Positions 292 through 22,138 of a stretch of 64,000 nucleotides of DNA are shown piece by piece (the first letter of the stretch is position 1; the number at the start of each line of letters is the position of its first letter). The stretch is taken from assembly GCA_017304135.1 (NCBI GenBank), contig JAFLBB010000007.1, positions 7,404-71,403 of the forward strand, given 5' to 3'. The notes below the pieces were generated by a model. That model was not told the origin of the DNA. It saw only the letters and a program-made list of their open reading frames with translations, and did not search any database. Made by a program: the position numbers and the translations under genes. This DNA is from Acidobacteriota bacterium (GTDB lineage Bacteria; Acidobacteriota; Terriglobia; Bryobacterales; Bryobacteraceae).

Positions 292-1023
292 ATGAGTGTG
301 GGAAGCGCGGCACAACCGGCCGCCGGCGCCAAGGCCGCCGGGGACGGGAGCAGACTTTTTCTCTTCTATAACTCGCCTGTGGGCAAGAAGGCGGTGATGG
401 CCGTAACGGGCCTCGTCGGCTTCGGCTTTGTCATCGGCCACATGCTGGGGAATTTGCAAATCTTCCTCGGCCCGGAGGTGATGAACGCCTACGGCATGAA
501 GCTGCATGAAACGCCGCCGCTGCTCTATGGCGCGCGGACGGTGTTGCTCGGCGCCGTGGCGCTGCACATCATCGCCGCCTTGCAGTTGATCAAGATGAAC
601 AGCGACGCGCGGCCCACCAAGTACGCCAAGGTGAGCCCGGTCACCTCGAGCTACGCCTCTCGGACGATGTGGTGGAGCGGACCGATCCTGGGCTTCTTCA
701 TCGTCTACCACCTGCTCCACTTCACCTCCGGAGCGGCCCATCCGAACTTCACCTATCAGGACGCGGCGCGCCACATTCCGGCGCCGTATGAGAACGTGGT
801 GGCGGGCTTTTCCAACCCGCTTGTGTCGCTGTTCTACATCATCGCCATGATTCTGCTCATGCTCCACATCAACCATGGCGCATGGAGCCTGTTTCAATCC
901 CTGGGCCTCAACCATCCGCGCTATACGCCGCTGATCCGCACGGTGGCGCGCACCGCGTCGTACGCGTTGTTGATCGGCAACTGCGCCATCCCGCTGGCCG
1001 TACTGGCGGGCGTTGTGAAATAG
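292..1023 (+). CDS. sdhC: succinate dehydrogenase/fumarate reductase cytochrome b subunit (b558 type)
   Basis: 243 aa polytopic membrane protein with His-bearing helices, sitting immediately upstream of sdhA/sdhB. Its length and hydropathy match the Bacillus-type b558 subunit. Confidence 0.75.
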
Positions 1024-1040
1024 ACGAGGCATCCCTAACC

Positions 1041-2954
1041 ATGAAGCTCGAATCCCGTATCCCGTCAGGCCCCATCGAGAAGAAATGGGACAACTGCCGC
1101 TTCGACATGAAGCTGGTGAATCCGGCCAATAAGAGGAAGTACTCCGTAATTGTGGTCGGCACCGGGCTGGCCGGCGGAGCCGCCGCGGCCACGCTGGGTG
1201 AGCTGGGCTATAACGTCCTCTGCTTCTCCCACCACGACTCGCCGCGCCGCGCGCACTCCATCGCCGCGCAGGGGGGCATCAACGCCGCCAAGAACTACTG
1301 CAACGATGGCGACTCCATCTACCGCCTTTTCTATGACACGGTGAAGGGCGGCGACTTCCGCGCGCGCGAAGCCAATGTCTACCGGTTGGCGCAGATCAGC
1401 GTGGGCATCATCGATCAGTGCGTCGCGCAGGGTGTTCCGTTTGCCCGCGAGTATGGCGGCACGCTGTCCAACCGCAGTTTCGGCGGCGCGCAGGTGTCGC
1501 GCACGTTTTATGCGCGAGGGCAGACGGGGCAGCAGCTTCTGCTGGGCGCCTACCAGGCGCTGGAAAGGCAGATTGACGCCGGTTCGGTGAAGATGTTCAC
1601 GCGCCGCGAGATGCTCGACCTGATCGTCATCGACGGTGTGGCCCGGGGCATCGTGACGCGCGACATGGGCACGGGCAAGCTTGAGGTGACCATCGCCGAC
1701 GCGGTCGTGCTCGGCACGGGCGGCTACGGCAACGTGTTCTATCTTTCGACGAACGCGAAGAACTCCAACGCGACGGCCATCTGGCGGGCCTACAAGCGGG
1801 GGGCGGCATTCGGCAATCCTTGCTTCACGCAGATTCACCCCACCTGCATTCCGGTGTCGGGCGATTACCAGTCGAAGCTGACACTGATGTCGGAATCGCT
1901 GCGCAACGATGGCCGCATTTGGGTGCCTCTCAAGAAAGGCGATGCGCGGGCGGCGGATCAGATTCCCGAAGCCGAGCGCGATTACTTTCTCGAACGCCGC
2001 TACCCGAGCTTCGGTAACCTCGTGCCGCGAGACGTGGCTTCGCGCAACGCCAAGATGGTGTGCGACGAAGGCCGCGGCGTGGGGCCGGGCGGCTACGGCG
2101 TCTATCTCGATTTCGCCGACTCCATTCGCCGCCTCGGCGCAAGCACGATTCGCGAGCGCTACGGCAACCTGTTTGAGATGTACGACCGCATCACGGGCGA
2201 AGATCCGTACAGCGTCCCGATGCGCATCTATCCGGCCGTGCACTACACGATGGGCGGGCTGTGGGTGGATTACCGGTTGCAGTCGACCATTCCCGGCCTG
2301 TTCGTGATCGGCGAGGCGAACTTCTCCGATCACGGCGCCAACCGGCTTGGCGCGAGCGCCCTGATGCAGGGCCTGGCCGATGGCTACTTCGTGCTGCCGT
2401 ATACGATCGGCGACTATCTGGCCAACACCAAGCTTGCCAAGGCCGATGAGTCGCATGTGGCCGCGCGCGAGGCGCTGGGCAATGTCGAGAACCTGACGAA
2501 GAAGATGCTCGGCATCCGCGGCAAGCGCACCGTGGACAGCTTCCACAAGGAGCTGGGCAAGTACATGTGGGAATACTGCGGCATGGCGCGCACGGACAAG
2601 GGCTTGCAGTTTGCCATGGGCAAGATCGCCGAGTTGCGCGAGGAGTATTGGAAGAACGTGAACATCCTCGGCTCGAACGAGGAGATCAACCAATCGCTTG
2701 AACGAGCGGGACGCGTGGCCGACTTCATCGAGTTAGGCGAGCTGATGTGCCGCGACGCGCTGGAACGGCGCGAATCCTGTGGCGGACATTTCCGCGAGGA
2801 GTGGCAGACGCCGGAGGGCGAGGCGCAGCGCGACGACGAGAACTTTTCCCACGCCGCCGCCTGGCTCTACCAGGGCGATGGCAAAACGCCGGAGCGCCTC
2901 GTGGAGCCGCTCGAGTTCGAATACGTCCACCCCAGCCAGCGCAGCTACAAGTAG
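1041..2954 (+). CDS. sdhA: succinate dehydrogenase/fumarate reductase flavoprotein subunit
   Basis: N-terminal FAD dinucleotide fold ([21 protein letters not shown]). The [14 protein letters not shown] covalent-FAD His region and the SdhA/FrdA catalytic motifs (HYTMGG, ANRLGA) are present. Start chosen at ATG 1041 ([10 protein letters not shown]…); the longer ORF from 882 overlaps sdhC. Confidence 0.9.
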
Positions 2955-2971
2955 AGGGAGCCAGAAACGAG

Positions 2972-3745
2972 ATGAAGATCACTTTGCATGTCTGGCGGCA
3001 GAAAGACCGCAACGCGCAGGGCAAGCTGGTGCGCTATGAATGCCCGAATGTGAGCGAGCACATGAGCTTCCTGGAAATGCTCGACGTGCTGAATGAGGAC
3101 CTGACGACAAAGGGCGAGGATCCGGTTGCCTTTGAGCATGATTGCCGCGAGGGCATTTGCGGTTCGTGCGGCATCGTGATCAATGGCGTGGCCCATGGCC
3201 CGATGCCGGGCACTACGGTCTGCCAGCTTCACATGCGCCATTTCAAGGATGGCGATGAACTCTACCTGGAACCGTGGCGCGCCAAGGCGTTTCCCGTGAT
3301 GAAGGACCTGATTGTCGATCGCGGGGCGTTTGACCGCATCATCGCCGCCGGCGGCTACATCAGCGTGCCGGCCGGCTCGGCGCCCGACGGCAACGCCATC
3401 CCCGTGCCCAAAGAGGACTCGGACCGCGCCATGGATGCGGCCCAGTGCATCGGCTGTGGGGCGTGCGTGGCGGCCTGTCCGAACGCCTCGGCATCGCTGT
3501 TTACGTCGGCGAAGATCTCTCACCTCGGCCTGCTGCCGCAAGGCCAGCCCGAGCGGTACGAGCGCGCGCTCAACATGGTCCAGCAGATGACGATCGAGGA
3601 GTTCGGCGCTTGCGGCAACATCGGTGAGTGCGAGGCGGTATGCCCGAAACGCATCTCCATTGAGAACATTGCCCGCATGCATCGCGACTACATGAACGGG
3701 GCCTTCTCGGCCCGGCCCAACGCTGAGGCTGGCAGCGCGGGCTGA
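2972..3745 (+). CDS. sdhB: succinate dehydrogenase/fumarate reductase iron-sulfur subunit
   Basis: N-terminal 2Fe-2S region ([10 protein letters not shown]) and C-terminal ferredoxin-type clusters ([12 protein letters not shown]; [12 protein letters not shown]). GGGAG Shine-Dalgarno upstream of ATG 2972. The ORF-track start at 2747 is an out-of-context extension overlapping sdhA. Confidence 0.9.
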
Positions 3746-3753
3746 GGCCTCAC

Positions 3754-4392
3754 GTGCGCTTGTCCGCCGCACTGATCGCGTTCACTCTCGCAGCCTATGC
3801 CGCGCCCTTGGAGAAAGCGCCGCTGGGCGACGGCTGGTTCCCGATTGTCATCGTTGAGGTGACCGGTCCCGGTCAGGCGCCGGGTTGGACGGCCGTGGAA
3901 GTGGTTGAGGTGGTGCGCGGGGACCGCATTGAGGGCGCATGGCAAGCCTCGCTGGGCGGCTTCCCTGCCCGCCGCGGCGACCGCCTGCTGCTGTTCTACG
4001 CGCGTTCACGCGACAGCGGTCGCATTCTGCTGCCGCTGCATACCTATGAAGCCAACGACGAGAACGTGCGCTATGTGCGAACGAAGATGGCGATGGGGCC
4101 GCGAACGCGCCTGTTGCAGTTTCCCCTGCTGATCATCGCCATCATCGGCGCGCCGCTGGCCGGGCTGACGGCGATCATTTTCCGCAAGCCCTCGATTGGC
4201 GTTTGGGGTGTGCTGGCCGGACTCGCGGCGGGGTTGGCCTACGAGACTGGCGTGCCGAAACACACCAGCATCCGGGCCGATTGGCTGATGATGGCGCCCG
4301 CGCTGGCGGGCACCGCGCTCATGATCGTGATGGCACGCCACCGGGCGCGTGCCGCTACGATGTCACCTTCATCGACACCGGATCCCACGTGA
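3754..4392 (+). CDS. hypothetical membrane protein (signal peptide plus C-terminal TM helices)
   Basis: N-terminal signal-like MRLSAALIAFTLAAYAAPLE and two or three hydrophobic C-terminal helices. No recognisable family; may be real or a GC-driven ORF. Confidence 0.3.
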   Translation: MRLSAALIAFTLAAYAAPLEKAPLGDGWFPIVIVEVTGPGQAPGWTAVEVVEVVRGDRIEGAWQASLGGFPARRGDRLLLFYARSRDSGRILLPLHTYEANDENVRYVRTKMAMGPRTRLLQFPLLIIAIIGAPLAGLTAIIFRKPSIGVWGVLAGLAAGLAYETGVPKHTSIRADWLMMAPALAGTALMIVMARHRARAATMSPSSTPDPT

Positions 4393-6985: not shown

Positions 6986-7094
6986 GGTGTGATTTCATTC
7001 TACCGCCACCGCCGCGCCGGATTGGTCCGCGCAGCCTGATTCTGTTGCGGTTGGTGCATCCGCATGGTATGGTGAAAAGGTTGTCCCTCAGAGC

Positions 7095-7170
<76 letters not shown>

Positions 7171-7568
7171 CTCTTCCCTCCGGCACTACACATCCTCCTG
7201 TTCGATCTTCCTTCGACCGCCGTTCCCGGCTTGTGGCATGCCTGGCCGAGGCCTGTCGCGTGGATCGACCGGGAGTGTTGTGACATGACAACTGGGCCTC
7301 GCGCGTTTGGTGCAGGTCACGGTCGCATGTCCCGGTTGCATGCCAGCGGGAGAGCACTGGCCGAGGTGGGAGGGTAGGTCGAGAGCATACGCTGCTCCGA
7401 CGACCGACTCCAGCGAGACGGGGAGGCTGGAGTGGGGAATGGAGAGCGTGATGGGGCGGGCTCCGGCTAAGGGTGAAGATGGGGGAGACAACGTGCTGAT
7501 TTCCTACATCTCAATACAGGACAAAGTAGACCTGAATCATCCACTTACTCCAATCCTGCTGTGTTTCG

Positions 7569-7599
7569 CCACTGCGTAGCGTTTGCAGTGGTTTATATA
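7569..7599 (+). terminator. hairpin with T/A-rich tail (terminator-like) in the noncoding stretch downstream of tRNA-Lys
   Basis: ccactgc-GTAGCGTTT-gcagtgg followed by TTTATATA. Confidence 0.3.
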
Positions 7600-7767
7600 C
7601 GCCACGCAACGGAAGCATGCCCCACCCCTCTTGGGTGATTACTCTCAGCCCACACGGTGGGGCAGAGGAAACCAAGCGGAACCCCCTAGAAAGGGCATTT
7701 TTTGCGCAGTGGCATACCGATTGCTTCCGAGTGCGAGCGAGTGGAAAGCTCACCAAACTGATCCGGT

Positions 7768-8241
7768 ATGGCAGCCATGCAGCTTACTCGAGCCGCCGAT
7801 TACGCCGTCCGCGTGATGATCACGCTGGCGGGCATGCCGCCGGGTGCGCGCGCCAGCCGCGAGTCGCTTGCTGGAGCGGCCGAGGTTCCCTCGCAGTTCC
7901 TGGGAAAGGTGTTGCAGGCGTTGACGCGCTCGCAGCTGATTGTTTCGCATCGTGGCTCACGGGGCGGCTTCTCGCTGGCCCGTCCCTCTTCCAACATCTC
8001 CATGCTCGACGTGGTGCAGTCCATTGAGGGCCCCATCCAGTTGAATGTCTGCCTGGGACAGGACGACGCTTGCGGCCGCCGCTGGTTCTGCAGTGCGCAT
8101 GAGGTATGGCGGACAGCGCAGGCGGTGTTGAGCGGCGTGCTGCAAAGCGCCAAGTTGGACCGGTTGGCGGCCGACGCCCTGCAGAGAAGAAGGCTGGGCG
8201 AGCCGTGCCCGATCCGCGCCGAGGAGATTGCATGGAGCTGA
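7768..8241 (+). CDS. Rrf2 family transcriptional regulator (three-Cys, IscR/NsrR-like)
   Basis: MQLTRAADYAVRVM… wHTH N-terminus typical of Rrf2. A C-x6-C-x5-C cluster (CLGQDDACGRRWFC) sits where IscR/NsrR ligate an Fe-S cluster. It heads the bc-cbb3 gene string. Confidence 0.85.
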   Translation: MAAMQLTRAADYAVRVMITLAGMPPGARASRESLAGAAEVPSQFLGKVLQALTRSQLIVSHRGSRGGFSLARPSSNISMLDVVQSIEGPIQLNVCLGQDDACGRRWFCSAHEVWRTAQAVLSGVLQSAKLDRLAADALQRRRLGEPCPIRAEEIAWS

Positions 8242-8420
8242 CCTGGGTGACCATCGCCGCCAGCCTGTGCATGGGCCTGGGAGCCGCCATGTTGTTTGTG
8301 TTCGCCGTGAAGAAGGACTGGTTCCGCGACATTGAAGACGCCAAGTACCACATGTTCTGGGCTGAGCTCCAGGACCTGGTGGACCATCCAGACACGAAGC
8401 AGGAGAAGAAATGCCCGTAA
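8232..8420 (+). CDS. ccoS: cbb3-type cytochrome oxidase maturation protein CcoS/FixS-like (62 aa, single TM)
   Basis: ATG 8232 with GAGGAG Shine-Dalgarno. [39 protein letters not shown] resembles the CcoS consensus (TM helix followed by F-x-WA-x-K-x-x-Q-F/Y-DD). Overlaps the end of the Rrf2 gene. Confidence 0.5.
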
Positions 8421-8905
8421 ACCTGAGGAGAAGCAGTGGCGCCAATACCGAACAAGGGGAGGGCGGGCATCGCCGCGCCTTCCTGGGATGGCTCACCAGC
8501 GTGGGTCTGTTCGGCTCGGCGGTGTTGAGCGCATTTTCCAATTTCGTATTCATCAAACCGCGCGCCACCTACGGCGCGCCGCAGCGGTTCAGCATCGGCA
8601 AGCCGGAGGATTTCCCGGCGGGGACGCGCATTGCCATCGAATCGCGCCGCATCTGCGTGGTGCGGGAAGGCGAGAAACTGGCGGCGATCTCCACCACCTG
8701 CACGCACCTGGGCTGCATCATCGGCATCAGCGACACGGGGTTTGCCTGTCCCTGCCATGGTTCGCGTTTCGATCAGGATGGCAATGTGACCGGTGGCCCG
8801 GCGCCGAGGCCGCTGCCCTGGTACAAGGTCTCGCTCGCGCCGAATGGCGAGGTCGAGGTGGACAAGGACGTTGAGATCGAGCCGGGGAGCTACCTGAACG
8901 TATGA
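8411..8905 (+). CDS. Rieske [2Fe-2S] iron-sulfur subunit of a cytochrome bc-type complex
   Basis: Rieske boxes CTHLGC and CPCHGS, a Tat-like N-terminus and one TM helix. AGGAGAAG Shine-Dalgarno upstream. Confidence 0.9.
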
Positions 8906-10224
8906 GCGCCGCAACACCTCCCAAACCCGCGCCGCCGGCGCACAAACCGTCGCTGGTTGGCTCGCTGCTGTCGCTGCCTGCCAACGTCTGGAGCTCGATC
9001 TTCCGCAACCCGCTTCCGGGCAACGACGTGGAGCGCTCAGCCACCAGCTTCACCAACTTCTTCCTGCACATTCATCCGGTCAAGGTGCATCAGAACACGC
9101 TGCGCCCGCTCTACACGCTCGGTCTGGGCCTGATGTCATTCTTCCTGTTCATCATCCTCGTGGTGACCGGCATCCTTCTTATGTTTTACTACGTGCCGTC
9201 CACCACGCAGGCCTACGACCGCATGCTTGACCTGCGCGGCTCAGTCGCGTTTGGCACCTTCCTTCGCAACATGCACCGTTGGGGAGCGCACGGCATGGTG
9301 GCCATCGTCTTTCTTCACATGTGCCGGGTGTTCTTCACGGGGTCATACAAGAAGCCGCGGGAGTTCAACTGGGTGATCGGCGTTCTATTACTGCTGGTGA
9401 CCTTGTTCCTGAGCTTCACGGGATACCTGCTGCCGTGGGATCAGTTGGCCTTCTGGGCCATCACTGTGGGCGCGGCCATTGCCGGCTACGCACCGGTGGT
9501 GGGTAAAGACATGCAGTTCCTGCTGTTGGGTGACGCTAACGTCGGCCAGGAAGCGCTGCTCCGCTTCTATGTGCTGCACGTGGCGGTTCTGCCGGCGGTG
9601 CTGACGCTGCTCATCGCCATTCACTTCTGGCGCATCCGGAAAGACGGCGGCCTGTCGCGCCCTGCCGAAAGCGAGGTCCAACCGGAGATCCTCTCCGCGC
9701 CCGGCGCCGACGTTGTGGTGACCGTAAAGGCGGTCCAACTGGAGCCCAAGAGGACGTACGGACTGCAGGGCCTGGTGCGCGGGCCACTCATCAAAACCGG
9801 CAACGTGCCTGACCGCTCCGTCTTCTCCTGGCCCAACCTGCTCGTCGCCGAACTGTTCACCTTCATTCTGACGCTGTCGGTGATTCTAGTGGTCTCGCTT
9901 CTCTTCGACGCACCGCTTGAAGAGCCGGTAAACGTGATGCATCCGCCCAACCCGGCCAAAGCGCCGTGGTATTTCCTCGGGCTGCAGGAGATGGTCAGCT
10001 ATTCAGCGTTCTGGGGCGGCATCGGCATTCCCACGCTGTTTGTGATCGGCCTGTTGATTGCCCCCTATCTCGACCGCGCCCCCGGCGGCGTGGGCAAGTG
10101 GTTCGCCCGCGAGCGCCTGCTGGCCAACACGACGTTTCTCACCTTTGTCGTCGTGAACGTGATCCTCGTGATCATCGGCACACTGTTCCGAGGCCCCAAC
10201 TGGGCCTTCGTCACCCCCTGGTAA
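8902..10224 (+). CDS. cytochrome b (fused b6/subunit IV type) of the bc complex
   Basis: 440 aa polytopic protein with bis-His helices (…[23 protein letters not shown]…[13 protein letters not shown]…). Start overlaps the Rieske stop (ATGA). Confidence 0.9.
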
Positions 10225-10233
10225 GGAGAGCCC

Positions 10234-12028
10234 ATGAGACTAGCACTAGCCATCGGAAGCTTCCTCATCCTCGTGGTGCACGGACTGGTGTTCTACAAAC
10301 AGTTCTTCCACGCCTGGGAACGCCACCAGAGCGCTTACTTCGACCAGGCCCGCGGGCTGGCCAAGAGCGAAACCGAGCGCGCCGCCGTCACCGGCCGCAG
10401 CCCGCGCATCGAGCAGCTCATCGTCACCAGCTTTGGTGAAACGCGCGTCGATCGCTGCACGACATGCCATATCTCCAGCGACGATCCTCGCTTTGAAAAA
10501 TACGCCCACCCGCTCAAGACCCATCCCTACTCAGCAGCCATGGGCGACGTTCAGAAAAACGGCAAATGGGAGCGCCGCCATAAGTTCTCCGACTTTGGCT
10601 GCACGGTGTGCCACGACGGCCAGGGCCGCGGCCTCAAGCCCGAGTACAGCCACGGCGAGGACCACTACTGGCCCGACCCGCTCCTCGGCTACGTCGCGCA
10701 ACATGGCTGGCGCAAGGAGTTCGTCTCCAAGCTCAAGGGCCGCGAATACATGGAAGCCAACTGCGCCCAATGCCACACGGAGGACAACTTCGCCGGCACG
10801 GCCACGGTGCAGCGCGGCCGCCAGCTTTTCTTCTCCACCAACTGCTATGGCTGTCACCGCATCGAAGGTCTCTCCGACGGCACGCTCGGCCCCGACCTCA
10901 CCGAGGTGGGCAAGAAGTTCAAGGTCGACTATCTATGGGAGTCCATCGCCGATCCGCGCGCCAACTCGGCGACCTCGGTGATGCCGCAGTTCAAGCTTTC
11001 CGAAGCCGACCTGAAAGCGCTGGTCATCTTCCTCAAATCGCGCAAGGGGATGAACTTCTCGGAAACCGAGATCCAGCGCTACCGCGCCAAGCTCACCGGC
11101 GGAGCTGAGCTCATCCAGGCCACCATCAAACCGGTGGAGATCACAGCCAGCCAGATGTTGCAGCAGGGCCAGAAGCTGGTTGAGGACCGCGCCTGCATGG
11201 CCTGCCACAAGCTCAACGCCAGGGACGGCGGCATCGCGCCAGACCTGAGCTATGAGGGTCTGCTGAAAGACGAGTCCTGGATCCAGGAGCACTTCGCCAA
11301 TCCGCGCAGCGTGGTGTCGGACTCCATCATGCCGACGTTCCGCTTCACGGCCGACGAGTTCAAAGCCATGTCGGCGTATCTGGCCAGCCTCAAAACCGCG
11401 CCGGCGCTGGCCAGCGGCGCCGACGCCTACAAGGCGCTTTGCCAGCGCTGCCACGGCGACAAGGGCGACGGCCACGGCGAAATCGCCATCTACCTTGACC
11501 CCTACCCGCGCGACCTCACCAAGGCCGGGTTTATGAACTCGAAGCCGATGGAACGGCTCACACACTCGATTCAGAACGGCGTTGCCGGAACCTCGATGCC
11601 CGCCTGGGGCAAGTTGTTGAACGAGGCGCAGGTGAAGGGCGTGCTGGAGCACGTTCTGACCACGTACACCAAGACGCCACGGCGCGAATTGAAAGCACGC
11701 AAGGTGCCCACGGCGAATCCCGTGGCCATGAGTCCTGCCTCGGTCACGCGCGGCGAAGCAGTGTTCGTGCAACGCTGCGCCGGCTGCCACGGACGCAAGG
11801 CCGACGGCAAGGGACCGAACTCGCTCGACATCCTGCCCCGCCCGCGCAACCTGCGCAACTCAGCGTTCGTGCACAGCGTGAACGATGAGCGGCTTTTTGA
11901 CTCCATCCTCTACGGCGTCCAGGGCACGGCCATGCCGCCCTGGATCGACTATGGTCTCTCCAACAACGACGTTGGCGATCTCGTGAACTTCATCCGCGGC
12001 ATCAATCCGCAATCGAAAGGAAACCAGC

Positions 12029-12054
<26 letters not shown>
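10234..12054 (+). CDS. heptaheme c-type cytochrome subunit of the bc complex, with a CcoP-like diheme C-terminal module
   Basis: Seven CxxCH motifs: [52 protein letters not shown]. The last two carry the CxxCHG..G.G signature typical of CcoP/class-I domains. N-terminal TM anchor. AAGGAGAG Shine-Dalgarno upstream. Confidence 0.85.
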
Positions 12055-13426
<1,372 letters not shown>

Positions 13427-13444
13427 GGCACAAGGAGATTTCCC

Positions 13445-14014
13445 ATGCTGAGAAAAGCAGACAATAGCGCCTCCTGGGCCGTCGCCGCTTCGCTCGTCCT
13501 CTTCTCCATCGGCGGCATCCTCACCACCGTGGTGCCGCCGCTGGTGGACAGCTCGTGGGCCAAGCCCTTCGAGAACTCCGACCCCGCCAAGGGGCCAACG
13601 GGCAAGCTGACGCAACTGAATGAACTCCAGTTGCAGGGCCGCGCCATCTACGTCCGCGAAGGCTGCTGGTATTGCCACACACAACAGACGCGCACGCTGC
13701 TGGCCGACACCAAACGTTCCGGCTGGAAGGGCGTCGATTCGCCCGTCTCCACCCCCGACGAATTCGTCTACGACTCGCCGCACCTGTTCGGCACCAAGCG
13801 CACCGGGCCTGACCTGTCGCGCGTCGGCGGCAAGTACGACGAGCAATGGCACCGCACCCACTTCCGCAACCCGCGCGACCTCGTGCAGGGTTCCATCATG
13901 CCGCCCTACCCGTGGCTGGTGGAGAACCCGCAGGAGTTCAAAGCCATCGTCGCCTACATGCAGTCGCTCGGCCGCGCCAAGAACTGGCGCCCCAACGAAG
14001 ATTACGAACAGTGA
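13445..14014 (+). CDS. ccoO: cbb3-type cytochrome c oxidase subunit II (monoheme)
   Basis: N-terminal TM helix and a single CWYCH heme motif. Length and position are typical of CcoO/FixO. Confidence 0.9.
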   Translation: MLRKADNSASWAVAASLVLFSIGGILTTVVPPLVDSSWAKPFENSDPAKGPTGKLTQLNELQLQGRAIYVREGCWYCHTQQTRTLLADTKRSGWKGVDSPVSTPDEFVYDSPHLFGTKRTGPDLSRVGGKYDEQWHRTHFRNPRDLVQGSIMPPYPWLVENPQEFKAIVAYMQSLGRAKNWRPNEDYEQ

Positions 14015-14022
14015 GGAACGCC

Positions 14023-14202
14023 ATGACTGACTACACCTATCCGAGCGTCTATCTCGCCTACTTCTTCTTCGCCCTCATGGCCGGACTCGCCGTCTACTTC
14101 TGCGTCCGCTCGGCGCGCGACGGCTACTGGGGCGAGCATGCCGAGGATCCCAAGTATACGGTGTTCGACGACGACGAGCATAACGAAAGGAGCGCGTCAT
14201 GA
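14023..14202 (+). CDS. CcoQ-like small single-TM protein (59 aa)
   Basis: MTDYTYPSVYLAYFFFALMAGLAVYFCVRSARDGYWGEHAED…: one TM helix and an acidic tail, at the ccoQ position between ccoO and the ccoP-like gene. Called by position and size only. Confidence 0.4.
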   Translation: MTDYTYPSVYLAYFFFALMAGLAVYFCVRSARDGYWGEHAEDPKYTVFDDDEHNERSAS

Positions 14203-14525
14203 GTGACTCCACCAAGACGCCGCCCGCGGGCGGCCACGAGGAGTTGAAGGAGTACGCCGGCGGCTGGATGACCGAGCGCAAGGGCACCGACGCGCCGGCC
14301 TTCCTCAAACTCGCCTTCCCGATCATCGGGCTGTTCGCGACCGGCTATCTCGTCGTCTACATGTACGGCGAGGTGGCGCATGAGGACCGCGGCGCCCTCG
14401 TGCAGAAGTTCAACGAAGTCACGCAGACCTCGCCCACGCTGATGTATGCCGTGGCCGCCATGGCGCTGGTCTACGTCATCCTGCTTGTGTCGTTCGTCAT
14501 CCGCCAGTTCAAAGAGGAAGAGTAA
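14199..14525 (+). CDS. CcoP N-terminal-domain (FixP_N-like) membrane protein lacking heme-binding domains
   Basis: 108 aa, two TM helices, no CxxCH. GHEELKEYAGGWMTERKGTDAPAFLKLAFPIIGLFATGYLVVY aligns by eye with the conserved G-IEEYDNPLPRWW-(TM) segment at CcoP N-termini. AAAGGAG Shine-Dalgarno upstream. Confidence 0.45.
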   Translation: MSDSTKTPPAGGHEELKEYAGGWMTERKGTDAPAFLKLAFPIIGLFATGYLVVYMYGEVAHEDRGALVQKFNEVTQTSPTLMYAVAAMALVYVILLVSFVIRQFKEEE

Positions 14526-14527
14526 CT

Positions 14528-16462
14528 GTGACCAACGGGTCCTGGCAGCTTCGCGTGTTGGACGACTCGCAGTACTGGGTCGAGATGGTGAAGTGCCGCA
14601 ACGCGTGCCCGGTGAAGACCGACGCCTGCGGCTATGTGAACGCCATTGCCGAGGGGCGCTATGAAGAGGCCTACCGCATTGCGCGCGCCACAAATCCCTT
14701 CGCCTCCATCTGCGGCCGCGTGTGCGGCGCGCCGTGCGAGATGAACTGCCGCCGCGGTTCGCTCGACGAGCCGGTCTCGATTCGCGCACTGAAGCGGTTT
14801 GTCACCACGCAGTACGGCCCCGAGGCCGGCGACTACCGCATCTACCGCGAAGCCTGCGACCAGCGCATGCTGCCGGCCAACCGCGGCGACTACGAGAAGA
14901 TCGCCGTCGTCGGCGGCGGCGTCTCCGGACTCACCGTGGCGCACGACCTGATCCAGCTTGGCTACAAGGTCACCGTCTTTGAAGCGCACTCCGAACCGGG
15001 CGGCATGCTCATGGTGGGTGTGCCCGTGTTTCGCCTGCCGCGCGACCTCGTGCGGCATGAGATCCAGGCCATCCTCTCGATGGGCGTGGAACTGAAGTGC
15101 AACATGCGCCTCGGCCGCGATTTCACCATCGCCAGCCTGCGCGCCGAGGGCTACAAGGCCGTCTTTCTCGGCATCGGCCTGCCCAAGGGGCGCAAGTTGG
15201 CGATTCCGGGCTCTGAAACCGATGGCGTGTACGACGGCATGGAGTTTCTGCGCGCCTTCAACGAAGGCAAGCCCATGCCTCTGGGCCGCCGCATCATCGT
15301 CATCGGCGGCGGAAACGTCGCTTATGACGTCGCGCGCTCCGCCCTGCGCCCGGCCGAAGCCGCCGCCACGCGCGCCGAGACGCTTGAGGAGATGGGGCGC
15401 GGCGAACAGATGGCCTACGATGTGGCCCGCTCGGCGCTGCGCATGAGCGGCGATAAGGAAGTCCACGTGGTCTGCCTCGAGTCGCGCGAGGAGATGCCGG
15501 CCGACGACATCGAAGTTCACGAAGGCGAGGAAGAGGGCATTCATCTGCACAACCGGCGGGGTCCGCACGAGGTTCTCATGGAGAACGGCAAGCTCGCCGG
15601 CCTGCGCACCCGCAAGTGCACCTCCGTCTTCAACGAAGAAGGACGCTTCGATCCGAAATTCGAAGAAGAGGCCTTCGACGACATCCACGCCGACTCGATC
15701 ATCTTTGCCATCGGCCAAAGCTCGGACCTCTCCTTTCTCGCCCCGGAGGATGGCGTGGAGTCGGCGCGCGGGCTGATCAAGGTGAATCCGGAAACCTACC
15801 AGACCACGGCGCCGGACGTCTTTGCCTGCGGCGACATCGCCCACGGCCCGCGCCTGTTCATCGACGCCATCGCCTCGGCCCACACCGCCGCCCGATCCAT
15901 GCACGATTTTCTCCGCGGCACACGCACCGACATCGCCCTGCGCAAACAGTGGCTGCCGGCGGCCTACACGATGGCCGAAGGCTGGCACCGCATGGGCCGC
16001 ACGAATCCGCCCGTGCTGGAAACGCAGCGCCGCGCCGCCTCCATCGAAAACGTCGAAGAGAACTACCCCGAAGAGATGGCCAAGCGCCAGGCCGCCCGCT
16101 GCCTGCGCTGCAACGTGAACACGGTATTTGACACCTCCATTTGCATCGCCTGCAACGGCTGTGTCGATGTGTGCCCGGAAGATCTCATCAAGCTGGTCGG
16201 CCTGAGCCGGCTGTCTGATAACGATGCGTTTTCCAAACTCGCCGCCGCCGGCGCCGACCTGAGCCGCGATGAGTACGCCGCGCTGACGGTGGCCGAAAAG
16301 GACGAGTTGGGTGGTGTGATGCTTAAGGACGAATCCACTTGCATTCGCTGCGCCATGTGCGCCTCGCGTTGCCCGACGCATGCCATCACGATGAAGAAGT
16401 TCGACCACTATCAGGAATGCGTCACCATCCCGTCACCAAATCCCAAGGTTCTGTATCAGTAG
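14528..16462 (+). CDS. NAD(P)H-dependent FAD oxidoreductase, glutamate synthase small-subunit (GltD) family, with two extra C-terminal [4Fe-4S] ferredoxin domains
   Basis: GltD-type N-terminus (CRNACPVKTDACGY…FASICGRVCGAPCEMNCRRG). Two Rossmann motifs (VVGGGVSGL; IVIGGGNVAYD). C-terminal CLRCNVNTVFDTSICIACNGCVDVCPE plus CIRCAMCASRCP. GTG start at 14528. Contains a 31-codon in-frame duplication around AYDVARSALR. Confidence 0.8.
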   Translation: MTNGSWQLRVLDDSQYWVEMVKCRNACPVKTDACGYVNAIAEGRYEEAYRIARATNPFASICGRVCGAPCEMNCRRGSLDEPVSIRALKRFVTTQYGPEAGDYRIYREACDQRMLPANRGDYEKIAVVGGGVSGLTVAHDLIQLGYKVTVFEAHSEPGGMLMVGVPVFRLPRDLVRHEIQAILSMGVELKCNMRLGRDFTIASLRAEGYKAVFLGIGLPKGRKLAIPGSETDGVYDGMEFLRAFNEGKPMPLGRRIIVIGGGNVAYDVARSALRPAEAAATRAETLEEMGRGEQMAYDVARSALRMSGDKEVHVVCLESREEMPADDIEVHEGEEEGIHLHNRRGPHEVLMENGKLAGLRTRKCTSVFNEEGRFDPKFEEEAFDDIHADSIIFAIGQSSDLSFLAPEDGVESARGLIKVNPETYQTTAPDVFACGDIAHGPRLFIDAIASAHTAARSMHDFLRGTRTDIALRKQWLPAAYTMAEGWHRMGRTNPPVLETQRRAASIENVEENYPEEMAKRQAARCLRCNVNTVFDTSICIACNGCVDVCPEDLIKLVGLSRLSDNDAFSKLAAAGADLSRDEYAALTVAEKDELGGVMLKDESTCIRCAMCASRCPTHAITMKKFDHYQECVTIPSPNPKVLYQ

Positions 16463-16469
16463 AACTAGA

Positions 16470-17180
16470 ATGACGGCTCTGGAATTCTCCATTCCGTTCG
16501 GTTTGGGACTGGTTTCCAGTCTCCACTGCACGCAGATGTGCGGTCCGCTCGTGCTTGCCTATAGCACGCCGATCCAGGGCGCGCGTCGAGCCGGGCTCAC
16601 GGCGCATCTTTCCTACAACCTGGGCAGGCTGTTCACCTATTCCCTGCTCGGCGCCGCCGCCGGCTTCGCCGGTGGAGGCATTGCCGCCCTCGGCCGGCTG
16701 GCGGGGGTGGAGAAGACGGCCGCCATCGTTGCAGGCATCGCCATGATCATCGCCGCCATCTTAATGGCCGGCTGGCTGCCGAAGAGTACATTAGTGCAAC
16801 TTGGCTCAGGACCATCCTGGATTTCGCGCACCGCGGGGCGTCTGCTGCGGTCAGCGGAACCTGTGCACAAGTTCGCGCTTGGCCTGGTGCTGGGGCTGCT
16901 GCCCTGCGGACTGATTTACGCCGCGCTGCTGAAGGCCATGGAAACGGGCTCGGCGCTGGACGGCGGTCTCACGATGTTTGCCTTCGGATTGGGCACCTCG
17001 GGCGCGCTGCTCGCGATAGGGCTCTTTTCCACCGCCATCACCGCCCGCCTGGGCCGGTACGCCAACACGTTTGCCGCGGTCAGTGTCGCCCTGATGGGGG
17101 CCTACCTGCTGTGGCACGGTTTGCGCGCCGCCCCCACGGGCGCCGGCACGGGGGCATGCCATCATGGCCACACCTCCTAG
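16470..17180 (+). CDS. TauE/SafE-annotated DsbD_2-like polytopic membrane protein with HCxxMCGP motif
   Basis: 236 aa, about 6 TM helices, N-terminal SLHCTQMCGPL motif, Gly/Ala-rich helices. Start overlaps the preceding stop. Confidence 0.55.
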   Translation: MTALEFSIPFGLGLVSSLHCTQMCGPLVLAYSTPIQGARRAGLTAHLSYNLGRLFTYSLLGAAAGFAGGGIAALGRLAGVEKTAAIVAGIAMIIAAILMAGWLPKSTLVQLGSGPSWISRTAGRLLRSAEPVHKFALGLVLGLLPCGLIYAALLKAMETGSALDGGLTMFAFGLGTSGALLAIGLFSTAITARLGRYANTFAAVSVALMGAYLLWHGLRAAPTGAGTGACHHGHTS

Positions 17181-18519
17181 CGCGCCGCCCAAACCGAAGC
17201 TGGTACGTCTGCCGCCGCTGCCACCCGCCGATACGGTCTACCATCGCATTCGCAAGCGCGTCCACCTGATCTTCTTCCTCATTTTCGTCGCGCTCCCGTT
17301 TTTCAATGTGATGCGCTTCGACATCCCCCGCCAGCGCTTTTACTTCGCCGGCTTCGAGCTGTGGATCAACGAATTCGCCATCATCTTTTTCGCGCTGATG
17401 TTCTTCATGTTCGTCATCGCGGCGTCGGCCATTCTCCACGGGCGCGTCTATTGCAGCTACGCCTGCCCGCAGATGATTTTCAGCGAATGGAGCATCACGG
17501 TGGAGCGCTGGGCCCAACAGCGCATCAACCGCCGTTTCCCCAAGTGGCCCGCCGCGCGGAAGAAGATTGCCCAGCAGTCCATCTTTTACTCCGTGCTGCT
17601 GGTGGCTTCGGTCTTCCTTGCCTTCGTCTTTACGGCCTACTTTGTCGAGCCGCGCGATCTGTTGGCCCGCCTGTTCAGCTTCGATTTGCAAACCGCGGGG
17701 GGCATCACCGGGGCCATTGTGACGGCCATCACGTTTCTCGATTTCACGCTCGTGCGCCTGCGCTTCTGCACCACGGTCTGCCCGTACGGCTACCTGCAAG
17801 GGATGCTCCAGGACAGGAATACGCTGCTGGTGATCTACCGCGACGGCAAGGACGAGCAGAAGGTCTGCATCGAGTGCAAGAAGTGCGTGCGCGTGTGCGA
17901 AATGGGCATCGACATCCGCGAGTCGCCCTACCAGATCGAATGCGTGCATTGCGGCGAGTGCATCGACGCTTGTGAAGACGTGTTGCGCAAGGTGGGCCGC
18001 CCTGGCCTGATCCACTACGCCTGGGGCGAGCAGAGTGCGCCGGCTCCGGCCGCAAAGCAACGCGAGCCCCTGCTTCACCGCCTCGGCCTGCGCGACGCCA
18101 AACGCATCGGCATCGCCCTCATCCTGGTCTTCTATTTGTTCGGACTGATGGCGGTTCTTTCCATGCGCCGCCCGGTGATGGTGCGCGTCATTCCAGACCG
18201 CACAACGCTGTTCCAGGATCTGGGCGATGGGCGCATCGGGAACACCATCCGGCTGCATCTGGTGAATCGCGGCAGCACGCCGACCGAGGTCCGCTTCTGG
18301 GTGGAGAATCTCCCTGGCGCGGAGATCGGCATCACGCCGAACCCGCTCACGCTCGCCCCTGGTGAGGAGATCCAGCGGTCGTTCGAACTGCGCGCCCACC
18401 CCTGGAGCGGGGCGCAAGATGTGAACCGCTTCCGCTTTCTGGCGCAACCCTCCAACGAAACCACACCGGACCAGTTCGACCTCACCTTCATCATGCCCGT
18501 GCCCAAGCCCACGCGATAG
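17164..18519 (+). CDS. ccoG: cytochrome c oxidase accessory protein CcoG/FixG (polyferredoxin)
   Basis: N-terminal TM helices, then CSYACPQ, CTTVCPYG, CIECKKCVRVCEMGIDIRE and CVHCGECIDACE ferredoxin motifs, plus a C-terminal Ig-like region. Typical CcoG architecture. Confidence 0.9.
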   Translation: MATPPSAPPKPKLVRLPPLPPADTVYHRIRKRVHLIFFLIFVALPFFNVMRFDIPRQRFYFAGFELWINEFAIIFFALMFFMFVIAASAILHGRVYCSYACPQMIFSEWSITVERWAQQRINRRFPKWPAARKKIAQQSIFYSVLLVASVFLAFVFTAYFVEPRDLLARLFSFDLQTAGGITGAIVTAITFLDFTLVRLRFCTTVCPYGYLQGMLQDRNTLLVIYRDGKDEQKVCIECKKCVRVCEMGIDIRESPYQIECVHCGECIDACEDVLRKVGRPGLIHYAWGEQSAPAPAAKQREPLLHRLGLRDAKRIGIALILVFYLFGLMAVLSMRRPVMVRVIPDRTTLFQDLGDGRIGNTIRLHLVNRGSTPTEVRFWVENLPGAEIGITPNPLTLAPGEEIQRSFELRAHPWSGAQDVNRFRFLAQPSNETTPDQFDLTFIMPVPKPTR

Positions 18520-18530
18520 GATGAGAACCA

Positions 18531-18701
18531 ATGCCTGATCGAGCCAACGCCAGTTCCGCCAAACCACGCTCTTACTTTCCCCTGTTTCTCAGCGCCATCT
18601 TCGTCCTCTTTCTCGGCCTCCTGGCTTACACCTGGATTGGCGCCGAGAAGGCCAACCCCGTGATCCTGGATGAGCACGGGCAGCCGCGCGACCGTCGATA
18701 A
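18531..18701 (+). CDS. small single-TM membrane protein (56 aa) at the ccoH position
   Basis: ATG 18531: MPDRANASSAKPRSYFPLFLSAIFVLFLGLLAYTWIGAEKANPVILDEHGQPRDRR*. Sits between ccoG and ccoI where ccoH/fixH usually is, but is far shorter than FixH. Not in the ORF track because it is under 60 aa. Confidence 0.3.
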   Translation: MPDRANASSAKPRSYFPLFLSAIFVLFLGLLAYTWIGAEKANPVILDEHGQPRDRR

Positions 18702-18703
18702 CC

Positions 18704-21178
<2,475 letters not shown>

Positions 21179-21208
21179 GCCATCCGGCGTGCGGTTCGCG
21201 CCCACCTG

Positions 21209-22138
21209 TTATTTTGGCGCCAGTCGATGCTGTTGAAACCACTCCACGGCCAGTTGGTCGCGTTTATGGCGGTTGCGCGTCAGGACATGGTCGTCGTGGG
21301 CAAAGATAACCAGTGAGTACGGGCGTCTGTGTACGGTGAGTGCCTCGGCGAGGCGAAGGGACTGCCTGGGCGAAAGCGAGTCGTCGCCGCCATGCAGAAT
21401 CAGGATCGGTGTTCGGATCTTCTCAGGCCAGCGCAGGGCCGACCGGCTTTCGTGGATACCTTCCCGTTCCGCATCGTAGTCCGGCCACAGGAACCGGGCG
21501 AGTTTACGATCCGGGTCCTGCAGATTTAGGGTTTCTTCAAGGTCCGTAGTGGCGCCATACACGGCCGCTGCGCGCACGGGGAAGCCGTCGCGCAGCGCGA
21601 AATAGGTCATCATGCCACCGCGCGACTCCCCATACAGAAACACCTCCCCGGCATTCACCGATGGCAGTGAGTTCACCACTTCGATGGCATTGCGAAGGTC
21701 GGCCAGATCGGCGCCACCCAGCTCATCGTGGCCGGCCGTTCCGTCGCTGCCGCGAAACATCGGGGCGAACACGACAAACCCCTGCCGGGCCAGCCTTCGC
21801 ATCATCGTGACCAGCAGCGGAGCCTGGTTGTGGACGATCAGGCTGCCGCGTGAAAAGACGATCGCGGGCAGTTTGCCCGAGAGCTGCTTCGGACCATAGA
21901 GATAGCCTGACACGACCACGCCATTGCTTCGGTATAAAAGGCGCTCGTAGAGAAAGTTAGGGTCCGCTTTCGCCTCGGCGTATTCTGAGGCGGTCGCGTA
22001 CCGGGCGATCGGCGGCGTGGCTTCGAAGGCGGGCAGGTCAATCGGCATCCGCTCCACGATGAGAGCCCCACCCGGCTGCGCGCCGCGGAGTCCCGTACAG
22101 AGAAGAAGACTCAATAGCGGCAAGAGATTCCGGCGCAT
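21209..22138 (-). CDS. secreted alpha/beta hydrolase (dienelactone hydrolase/S9-like)
   Basis: Signal peptide MRRNLLPLLSLLLCTGLRGAQP. Nucleophile elbow GESRGG and a C-terminal HGGDD…H region. Confidence 0.7.
   Translation of the reverse strand: MRRNLLPLLSLLLCTGLRGAQPGGALIVERMPIDLPAFEATPPIARYATASEYAEAKADPNFLYERLLYRSNGVVVSGYLYGPKQLSGKLPAIVFSRGSLIVHNQAPLLVTMMRRLARQGFVVFAPMFRGSDGTAGHDELGGADLADLRNAIEVVNSLPSVNAGEVFLYGESRGGMMTYFALRDGFPVRAAAVYGATTDLEETLNLQDPDRKLARFLWPDYDAEREGIHESRSALRWPEKIRTPILILHGGDDSLSPRQSLRLAEALTVHRRPYSLVIFAHDDHVLTRNRHKRDQLAVEWFQQHRLAPK

Follow-up and report, generated by a model that had tools for sequence, protein, structure and literature searches.

A GltD-like Fe-S flavoprotein as a candidate NAD(H) oxidoreductase subunit of a Rieske/cytochrome b complex encoded with a cbb3-type oxidase in Acidobacteriota

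What is the function of a flavoprotein related to the small subunit of glutamate synthase in an operon for a cbb3-type oxidase? This question is raised by a gene in a 64,000-nucleotide stretch of the genome of an Acidobacteriota bacterium of the Bryobacteraceae (assembly GCA_017304135.1, contig JAFLBB010000007.1, positions 7,404 to 71,403), which we refer to as the window. We use GltDFd as a label for the GltD-like Fe-S flavoprotein that this gene encodes:

14528-16462, + strand: GltDFd, 644 amino acids (aa), GTG start; GltD-like flavoprotein for flavin adenine dinucleotide (FAD) and nicotinamide adenine dinucleotide (NAD(H)), predicted to be cytoplasmic, with two N-terminal and two C-terminal predicted [4Fe-4S] sites

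The original prediction, made from the letters of the window, assigned GltDFd a dedicated role in electron input to, or reductive maturation of, the cbb3 oxidase. Our comparative analysis favors a different answer. With a probability that we put at about 0.6, GltDFd would serve the Rieske/cytochrome b6-type complex of the same operon as its NAD(H) oxidoreductase subunit on the cytoplasmic side, and would not be a cbb3 assembly factor. This reading draws on sequence motifs, domain architecture and gene context.

The evidence that carries it comes mainly from homologues outside Acidobacteriota. A search of 1.84 billion representatives returned many full-length relatives of the same architecture. 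Eleven of their contexts were read and ten were informative; P0127 was left out because it lies on a 2.8-kb contig. A further locus, L094, was chosen from the match list of the Nitrospirota homologue and not from the representatives search. The relatives whose contexts were read are 41-55% identical to the GltDFd of the window, and those linked to Rieske/cytochrome b are 41-52% identical. In eight of the ten, GltDFd directly adjoins a Rieske and/or cytochrome b gene, and the stop codon of one gene commonly overlaps the start codon of the next; L094 provides a ninth example. The gene orders are as follows:

L081: GltDFd, FixS, Rieske
L082/L083 (Nitrospirota): GltDFd, Rieske, cytochrome b6, 274-aa subunit-IV-like protein, cytochrome c
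L086: GltDFd, Rieske
L087 (Nitrospinota): GltDFd, cytochrome b, Rieske, cytochrome c
L089: GltDFd, 144-aa protein, FixS, Rieske, cytochrome b6, subunit IV, two cytochromes c, CcoN, CcoO, 47-aa protein, CcoI, DsbD_2
L091 (8001-17959): MerR, GltDFd, Rieske, cytochrome b, multihaem cytochrome c, NosZ and onward to NosD
L092: GltDFd, Rieske, cytochrome b, cytochrome c
L093 (Dehalococcoidia-type): CcmE, GltDFd, cytochrome b6, subunit IV, Rieske
L094 (nearest named clusters are Bacteroidota metagenome-assembled genomes (MAGs)): Rrf2, GltDFd, FixS, Rieske, cytochrome b6, subunit IV, cytochrome c, DsbD_2, cytochrome c, CcoN, CcoO, 63-aa protein, CcoG, 43-aa protein, CcoI

Because at least three of these loci (L082, L087 and L093) contain no cbb3, ccoG or DsbD_2 gene in the available sequence, and one contains nosZ, the Rieske/cytochrome b complex emerges as the common denominator. 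It is the partner of GltDFd that recurs across phyla, whereas cbb3, CcoG and DsbD_2 are optional. The linked cytochromes b of different phyla are b6-like and visibly similar, with subunit IV split or fused and with an N-terminal LHxHPVK motif. In L091, the bc module with its NAD(H) link seems to be paired with an N2O reductase instead of an oxidase.

These contexts speak against a role dedicated to cbb3, since homologues adjoin Rieske/cytochrome b genes and several do so with no cbb3, ccoG or DsbD_2 gene nearby. The two loci that do contain cbb3 point the same way. L094 and L089 share the gene set of the window in a shuffled order, with GltDFd at the operon head beside FixS and Rieske (in L089, the 144-aa protein lies between); ccoG is 7 kb from GltDFd in L094, and the L089 operon has none.

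The same loci bear on a narrower explanation, in which GltDFd is the physiological electron donor of CcoG. NAD(P)H would supply the electrons, which FAD and the four Fe-S clusters would hand on to CcoG at its two cytoplasmic [4Fe-4S] clusters; CcoG would then reduce Cu(II) to Cu(I), which CcoI would export for insertion into CcoN. The CcoG family is known as a cupric reductase and its physiological donor is stated to be unknown (PMC7558416), so that GltDFd could be this sought-after partner. Both proteins are cytoplasm-facing Fe-S proteins, and in the acidobacterial loci ccoG always follows GltDFd, either directly or with DsbD_2 alone in between. Nevertheless, we regard this explanation as unlikely. 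At least four Rieske/cytochrome b-linked loci (L082, L087, L091 and L093) show no ccoG in the available sequence, the L089 operon combines cbb3, ccoI and DsbD_2 without ccoG, ten genes separate the two in L094, and GltDFd is better conserved than CcoG (mean identity of 72% versus 60%). To our knowledge, classical proteobacterial ccoGHIS clusters carry no GltDFd-like gene, which also counts against it.

How firmly is GltDFd tied to the operon within Acidobacteriota? A genome scan seeded with GltDFd alone yielded 80 loci from Holophagae, Bryobacterales/Solibacteraceae and Blastocatellia, the last with both Pyrinomonadaceae and Chloracidobacterium, and the reciprocal test took CcoN as the seed (77-99% identity) and covered 80 metagenome loci. 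Counts are limited to loci with sufficient flanking sequence, which in the genome scan meant at least 3.5 kb upstream for CcoN and at least 3 kb downstream for CcoG. The gene order was identical to that of the window in every genome locus with enough flank, with CcoN in 65/65 loci and CcoG in 65/65. Rieske was found in 62 genome loci (61-82% identity), and Rieske and cytochrome b always belong to the same operon in Acidobacteriota. Starting from CcoN, GltDFd lay downstream in 54/54 metagenome loci, Rieske and cytochrome b upstream in 46/46, and CcoG was present in 35/35. Co-occurrence with cco genes in relatives had been set beforehand as a test of the original prediction, and it held in both search directions (65/65 genome loci and 54/54 CcoN-selected metagenome loci). 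DsbD_2 occupied its position in 34 of the 65 genome loci and in 25 of the 35 metagenome loci; it was absent there from all Holophagaceae/Geothrix-type loci, in which GltDFd and CcoG are about 70 nucleotides (nt) apart. Linkage of GltDFd to the cco operon is obligate in Acidobacteriota, and linkage to DsbD_2 is facultative.

This facultative linkage weakens the suggestion, also made in the original prediction, that GltDFd acts via the neighboring HCxxMCGP membrane protein. According to this view, GltDFd would reduce the DsbD_2 protein, which in turn would supply the maturation of cbb3 in the periplasm with electrons or with reduced Cu or haem. The two genes are only 7 nt apart in the window, and DsbD_2 recurs in the cbb3-containing operons of L089 and L094. 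However, it is not adjacent to GltDFd in those two operons, the Holophagaceae/Geothrix-type loci keep GltDFd without DsbD_2 at this position, and GltDFd operons with Rieske/cytochrome b only have no DsbD_2. In addition, relays of the DsbD/CcdA type draw electrons from thioredoxin-type dithiols and are not known to draw them from Fe-S wires. The comparative data largely refute this idea, and we give it almost no weight.

Sequence conservation was also informative. Mean identity to the window was 81% for CcoN, 79% for CcoO, 75% for cytochrome b, 72% for GltDFd, 60% for CcoG, 55% for CcoI and 52% for DsbD_2. GltDFd is thus conserved almost like the structural subunits and above the assembly proteins, which we counted in favor of a complex subunit. 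Its nearest relatives are acidobacterial. One Joint Genome Institute (JGI) metagenome protein is 98% identical, and proteins of 75-82% identity come from MAGs and isolates of Holophagaceae, Geothrix, Mesoterricola, Bryobacterales and Paludibaculum. Organism names of several loci were taken from MAG labels. Ten loci with an operon of the acidobacterial type (66-78% identity; L006, L031, L033-L035, L041, L043, L044, L074 and L078) bear the labels Bacillota, Clostridia, Heliomicrobium or Heliobacteriaceae, and these MAGs are probably mis-binned or mis-classified.

In the window, the operon is one uninterrupted + strand gene string at 8411-21178, from Rieske to CcoI, ended by a convergent gene at 21209-22138. 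Besides GltDFd, it comprises the following genes, preceded by a separate regulator gene:

7768-8241, + strand: Rrf2-family regulator (Pfam Rrf2, E 4.4e-29), separate and directly upstream of the operon
8411-8905, + strand: Rieske [2Fe-2S] protein, first operon gene (NCBIfam PetC/Rieske; CTHLGC...CPCHGSRF; twin-arginine-like N-terminus RRAFLG)
8902-10224, + strand: cytochrome b, 440 aa, fusion of b6-like and subunit-IV-like parts with about 7 hydrophobic segments (Pfam Cytochrome_B, E 2.9e-42)
10234-12054, + strand: membrane-anchored heptahaem cytochrome c with CcoP/FixO-like domains (7 CxxCH; N-terminal hydrophobic segment)
12029-13426, + strand: CcoN, catalytic subunit of the cbb3-type (C-family) oxidase (Pfam COX1, E 4e-92)
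13445-14014, + strand: CcoO, monohaem subunit (Pfam FixO, E 3e-42; ccoO and PRK14487 matches)
14023-14202, + strand: 59-aa single-helix protein, divergent CcoS/FixS-like, without a Pfam match of its own
14199-14525, + strand: 108-aa protein with two hydrophobic segments, small subunit in the CcoQ position, without a Pfam match
16470-17180, + strand: DsbD_2-family membrane protein (Pfam DsbD_2, E 1.2e-47; HCTQMCGP near the N-terminus, C-terminal CHHGH tail)
17164-18519, + strand: CcoG (FixG), membrane protein with 2x[4Fe-4S] (Pfam Fer4_18, FixG_C, Fer4_5)
18704-21178, + strand: CcoI-type copper-translocating P1B ATPase, last operon gene (E1-E2_ATPase, HMA, ATPase-cat_bd; TIGR01511, E 2e-149)

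The operon therefore joins Rieske/cytochrome b and cbb3 and is wider than the cco string alone. The original prediction placed GltDFd inside a cbb3 gene string; GltDFd does lie among cco genes, but the first genes of the string lie further upstream and are those for Rieske (8411), cytochrome b (8902) and the heptahaem cytochrome c (10234). The tight packing that had been noted between the oxidase genes and ccoG/ccoI was confirmed: the upstream open reading frame (ORF) stops at 14525, GltDFd runs from 14528 to 16462, and DsbD_2, the neighbor with HCTQMCGP, starts at 16470 and overlaps CcoG (17180 versus 17164). GltDFd was likewise rightly described as a non-canonical member of a cco-containing operon. 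A scan for promoters and terminators over 7000-21600 found sites no more numerous than in shuffled sequence and has no bearing on the operon boundaries.

Which protein could connect the two halves of this operon? The heptahaem cytochrome c matches Pfam Cytochrom_C four times as well as Cytochrome_CBB3 and FixO, with a partial ccoP match, and the operon has no separate ccoP or ccoH gene. This protein may take the place of both cytochrome c1/f and CcoP. Because of its CcoP-like domains, we suggest that it forms a direct electron bridge between bc and cbb3. In the actinobacterial cytochrome bcc-aa3 supercomplex, a multihaem cytochrome c bridges the complex III-type part and the oxidase, and no soluble cytochrome c is needed. 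The window resembles this system in its heptahaem cytochrome c with CcoP-like domains and in the lack of ccoP, and a similar supercomplex may form here. It differs in having a C-type cbb3 oxidase, a b6-type cytochrome b and an added NAD(H) flavoprotein.

The window cytochrome b has ExtP-like (residues 51-252) and ExtQ-like (318-439) matches in NCBIfam, and the nearest structures are cytochromes b6 (E 1e-44). Its N-terminal motif LHIHPVKV contains two His, the first of which is common to all four linked cytochromes b that were read; in the Kuenenia proteins, an N-terminal His (His43/His62) would be able to ligate an extra interface haem (PMC12954380). In cytochrome b6, haem cn is bound covalently by a cysteine; the Nitrospirota homologue (L082, 12412-13176) has Cys at this position (YTWCMGG), as do the Kuenenia versions, whereas the window protein has Gly. 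Lineages with GltDFd may therefore not all have the same cofactors on the cytoplasmic side.

The GltDFd protein itself combines a GltD-like core with Fe-S domains at both ends. Pfam matches are Fer4_20 at residues 22-95 (E 1.1e-18), Pyr_redox_2 (E 4.7e-25) and NAD_binding_8 at 127-160. The FAD and NAD(P) Rossmann folds span about residues 120-460 and include the motifs VVGGGVSG and VIGGGNVA, and this core is alignable to the structures of NfnB, GltD and dihydropyrimidine dehydrogenase (DPD). At the C-terminus, Fer4 motifs at residues 533-556 and 600-622 contain CxxCxxCxxxCP twice (539-550 and 605-616), and the ligand motifs CIACNGCVDVCP and CIRCAMCASRCP predict two further clusters. The N-terminal ligand set is C23, C27, C34, C62, C66, C70 and C74 plus E71, which in our reading, based on the Glu(Cys)3 ligation described in PMC8097209, is the pattern expected for two N-terminal clusters. 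All of these cluster cysteines are invariant among 74 aligned acidobacterial sequences. Across 12 cross-phylum sequences, C23, C27, C66, C70, C74, E71 and all eight C-terminal cysteines are invariant; C34 and C62 vary beyond Acidobacteriota and are fixed within them. The motifs thus support the four Fe-S sites of the original prediction. The protein has no hydrophobic segment. In the acidobacterial alignment, 276 of the 644 positions are at least 98% conserved, and identity is 66-82% across three acidobacterial classes.

Three further cysteines lie outside the eight of the ferredoxin motifs. The RCLRC pair (C525 and C528; window 16100-16111) is invariant family-wide and also occurs in the NfnABC-type chain, and Cys631 (window 16418-16420) is invariant in the acidobacterial alignment and present in P0275 too. 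In addition, the NAD-binding domain contains a 31-aa insertion directly after the GGGNVAYDVARSALR helix (window 15290-15445, residues about 260-305). It duplicates the preceding helix, giving AYDVARSALR twice, and Acidobacteriota conserve the two copies alike. Of the ten Rieske/cytochrome b-linked sequences aligned, nine have a comparable insertion; the Nitrospirota form and the aldehyde-oxidoreductase-linked form lack it.

Residues 316-318 (window 15473-15481) bear on nucleotide specificity. They read Cys-Leu-Glu, invariant in the 74 acidobacterial sequences, where relatives have YRR; the Arg-Arg after strand beta2, which binds the 2'-phosphate of NADPH, is thus missing. The remaining Rieske/cytochrome b-linked homologues have xLE or xVE at this position, and P0275 and the 9bov chain retain YRR. 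Because an invariant Glu instead of Arg-Arg ends the beta2 strand of the NAD domain, the sequence suggests that GltDFd prefers NADH over NADPH, and source annotations as "NADPH-dependent" are probably wrong on the nucleotide.

Among solved structures, the closest to GltDFd are the GltD-like subunits of Bfu-type NfnABC/StnABC complexes (9bov/9bp5, 9n5u and 8oh5; E 8e-85 to 1e-72), with 9bov/9bp5 as the top PDB sequence match (E 8e-85). Fold comparison was by sequence only; an AlphaFold2 model was set aside as too poor for a fold search (mean predicted local distance difference test (pLDDT) of 55.8). NfnABC/StnABC chains share with GltDFd the N-terminal two-cluster domain, the FAD/NAD(P) domains and a conserved RCLxC after the flavoprotein core. 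They differ in length (960-1180 aa versus 644 aa), extending into a formate-dehydrogenase-like domain, and in being soluble with HydBC-like partner subunits; they also keep YRR, whereas GltDFd has CLE and the 31-aa insertion. GltD and NfnB/SudA share the Fer4_20, FAD and NAD(P)H core and the seven Cys plus Glu ligands. Unlike them, GltDFd adds a C-terminal 2x[4Fe-4S] domain and has no gltB or nfnA nearby. DPD likewise combines GltD-like and 8Fe-ferredoxin-like modules, and its four clusters form a linear wire from FAD to a distant site (PMC8097209). In DPD, a domain with flavin mononucleotide (FMN) that resembles dihydroorotate dehydrogenase (DHODH) lies between the modules and the acceptor is internal, whereas the acceptor of GltDFd must be another protein.

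Several other identities were ruled out. Source annotations as the beta subunit of glutamate synthase or formate dehydrogenase do not fit, since no partner gene is present and scores fall far under the family cut-offs (187.9 bits against 447.7 for TIGR01317, 199 against 483 for TIGR01318 and 261 against 472 for TIGR01316). No GltB-like gene was found in the window operon or in the 80 loci around GltDFd, and no NfnA partner gene (PyrK-like FAD/[2Fe-2S]) in the window operon or related loci. GltDFd is also not a homologue of CcoG, CcoH, CcoI or CcoS. Pfam and NCBIfam give GltD-like and ferredoxin matches only, and CcoG, CcoI and the CcoS-like protein are encoded by separate genes of the operon.

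Could GltDFd work outside any membrane complex? It might be a free-standing NAD(P)H:acceptor oxidoreductase, for ferredoxin or for redox balancing, that is merely co-regulated with microoxic respiration. The lack of a membrane segment, the generic source annotation of the family and two close relatives in other settings (one by aldehyde:ferredoxin oxidoreductase, one alone) agree with this. However, co-regulation alone is unlikely to maintain translationally coupled adjacency to Rieske/cytochrome b in Nitrospirota, Nitrospinota, Chloroflexota-type lineages and others, it leaves the 100% acidobacterial linkage in both search directions unexplained, and the aldehyde-oxidoreductase-linked relative, P0275, is itself fused to a membrane domain of roughly 200 aa. 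We therefore consider a free-standing enzyme very unlikely. P0275 (820 aa; L088, 10001-12463) is the closest non-acidobacterial relative (55% identity) and adjoins aldehyde:ferredoxin oxidoreductase and polyferredoxin genes; its additional N-terminal domain is multi-helix and has no Pfam match.

If GltDFd is a subunit of the Rieske/cytochrome b complex, how might electrons flow? The system to compare is that of the anammox bacterium Kuenenia stuttgartiensis. In its complexes Kuste4569-4574 and Kustd1480-1485, Rieske is joined by a b6-type cytochrome b, a subunit-IV-like protein and multihaem cytochromes c (PMC12954380, Hauser et al. 2025). Kuste4570 and Kustd1483 are putative cytoplasmic NAD(P) oxidoreductases with FAD and four [4/3Fe-4S] clusters, the structure nearest Kuste4570 is NfnABC (PDB 9bp5), and AlphaFold3 models show a path from the b haems via an extra interface haem and the clusters to FAD (PMC12954380). 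As far as the proposal of Kartal et al. 2013 is recounted in that paper, quinol would be bifurcated, one electron passing via Rieske to multihaem c and the other via the b haems and the Fe-S wire to NAD(P)+. The window operon likewise joins Rieske, a b6-type cytochrome b, a subunit-IV-like part and a multihaem cytochrome c, and GltDFd resembles Kuste4570 and Kustd1483 by description, architecture and context. It is predicted to be cytoplasmic with FAD and four Fe-S clusters, its nearest structure family is 9bov/9bp5, and the function is putative in both systems. No Kuenenia or Brocadia homologue surfaced among the matches listed in the representative, cluster, Nitrospirota-homologue and profile searches. 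There are also clear differences. In Kuenenia, the high-potential partner is a hydroxylamine oxidoreductase (HAO)-like octahaem protein or an unknown acceptor, and in the window it is the cbb3 oxidase (O2); the host is an acidobacterium of lineages known as heterotrophs instead of an anammox chemolithoautotroph; subunit IV in the window is fused to the cytochrome b, in which the haem cn cysteine is missing; and the GltDFd gene follows ccoNO instead of adjoining Rieske/cytochrome b.

By analogy, GltDFd would dock on the cytoplasmic face of cytochrome b, its FAD would exchange hydride with NAD+/NADH, and its four clusters would wire the FAD to a cytoplasmic-side haem. The downhill branch would run from Rieske via the heptahaem cytochrome c and CcoO/CcoN to O2, so that the whole assembly would be a quinol-oxidizing, O2-reducing complex with an NAD(H) port. 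We lean modestly toward NAD+ reduction, as in the anammox proposal, a direction that fits the consistent association of the module with very high-potential sinks (O2 and N2O; nitrite in Kuenenia). In the full version of this hypothesis, quinol is bifurcated at the b6-type Rieske/cytochrome b complex, with one branch via heptahaem c and cbb3 to O2 and the other via the b haems, the four-cluster wire and FAD to NAD+. We advance it tentatively, as a possibility that more probably fails than holds.

The sequence data are equally compatible with NADH feeding a cytoplasmic-side quinone site. In this case, the same assembly would run in reverse: GltDFd would oxidize NADH and feed cytochrome b at its cytoplasmic-side haem or quinone-reduction site, resulting in a self-contained NADH-to-O2 chain in which the bc-cbb3 assembly has its own NADH dehydrogenase function. 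This direction shares all the structural and contextual evidence, would be thermodynamically downhill, suits organoheterotrophic hosts and agrees with the Glu at the end of beta2, which points to NADH. Moreover, GltD-like modules are usually NAD(P)H-oxidizing entry points, passing electrons to a partner through low-potential clusters (PMC8097209). On the other hand, the sinks are specifically of high potential, as the uphill branch of a bifurcation would need, and the published proposal for the homologous system has the opposite direction (PMC12954380). In addition, bacteria normally carry NADH dehydrogenases (none was looked for in the window or the loci), so that reversed flow brings no obvious advantage. 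We consider it possible but rather doubtful.

Several observations weigh against GltDFd as an NAD(H) subunit of the Rieske/cytochrome b complex. In Acidobacteriota, about 4.3 kb separate the end of the cytochrome b gene from the GltDFd gene further downstream, and GltDFd directly precedes ccoG, or DsbD_2 and ccoG, in 65/65 genome loci with at least 3 kb downstream. Two of the ten informative contexts are exceptions, P0275 beside aldehyde:ferredoxin oxidoreductase and the orphan P0129. The haem cn cysteine position of b6 is Gly74 in the window cytochrome b. The AlphaFold2 single-chain model (21-sequence alignment; mean pLDDT 55.8, Fe-S domains below 50) offers no physical support. Cultured acidobacterial relatives are organoheterotrophs with no obvious need for NADH from quinol. 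The assignment of GltDFd to the anammox-type subunit family is based on architecture and context and is accordingly provisional. A neighbor-joining tree of 123 family members was star-like and speaks neither for nor against a single clade of Rieske/cytochrome b-linked members. Finally, the anammox quinol-to-NAD(P)+ mechanism is itself a proposal (PMC12954380).

Until now, the discussion of Rieske/cytochrome b complexes that include an NAD(P) oxidoreductase subunit has concerned anammox bacteria, which grow slowly and lack genetics. In Acidobacteriota, this module belongs obligately to a bc-cbb3 operon, and several further phyla have close homologues with linkage to Rieske/cytochrome b. Cultivable hosts such as Geothrix sp. 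PMB-07, Mesoterricola sediminis and Paludibaculum fermentans, with O2 as a chemically simple high-potential sink, allow us to ask whether a bc-type complex exchanges electrons with NAD(H). If the bifurcation hypothesis is true, the operon would in effect encode an O2-driven quinol:NAD+ reductase, producing NADH at no cost in proton-motive force. Its hosts would include Acidobacteriota that are abundant in soil and freshwater, along with Bacteroidota-type, Nitrospirota, Nitrospinota and Chloroflexota-type lineages that combine it with other terminal modules such as NosZ; for NC10, the assignment is based on a sequence name without context. An anammox curiosity would thereby become a widespread and experimentally tractable mode of energy coupling. 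A likely annotation trap is also corrected, as sources name these proteins "glutamate synthase beta subunit-like" or "formate dehydrogenase (NADP+) beta subunit". A literature search for this arrangement in Acidobacteria, Chloracidobacterium and Geothrix found nothing relevant; its coverage was partial, and the arrangement may already be published.

The remaining operon genes gave minor results. CcoN and CcoG score below the cut-offs of TIGR00780 ccoN (E 1.7e-98, 330.6 bits against 583) and TIGR02745 (E 6.9e-76, 255.9 bits against 316.7), respectively. When 766 ORFs were ranked with a profile of the acidobacterial 59-aa family, the three best were the ORFs that Pfam annotates as FixS in L094, L081 and L089 (E 2e-4 to 4e-4; next 0.08), and by this profile match the 59-aa ORF is a divergent CcoS/FixS; the window operon has no ccoS after ccoI. 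The 108-aa ORF is present in 77 genome loci, and its family profile matches the small ORF that immediately follows CcoO in L094 (E 3e-6) and L089 (E 0.012). These counterparts are 47-63 aa long, and the acidobacterial version has an additional C-terminal helix. The end of the DsbD_2 protein, GACHHGHTS, resembles a metal-binding tail more than a thiol-disulfide relay.

Regarding regulation, an Rrf2 gene also precedes the GltDFd-headed operon of L094, and a partial ORF upstream in L081 is Rrf2-like by eye. The Rrf2 gene upstream of the operon hints at control that responds to Fe-S status, nitric oxide (NO) or redox state. Further upstream in the window, at 882-4392 on the + strand, lie genes for a succinate dehydrogenase/fumarate reductase flavoprotein, its Fe-S subunit and a likely membrane subunit; they represent a quinone-level electron source near the operon, a position that may be coincidental.

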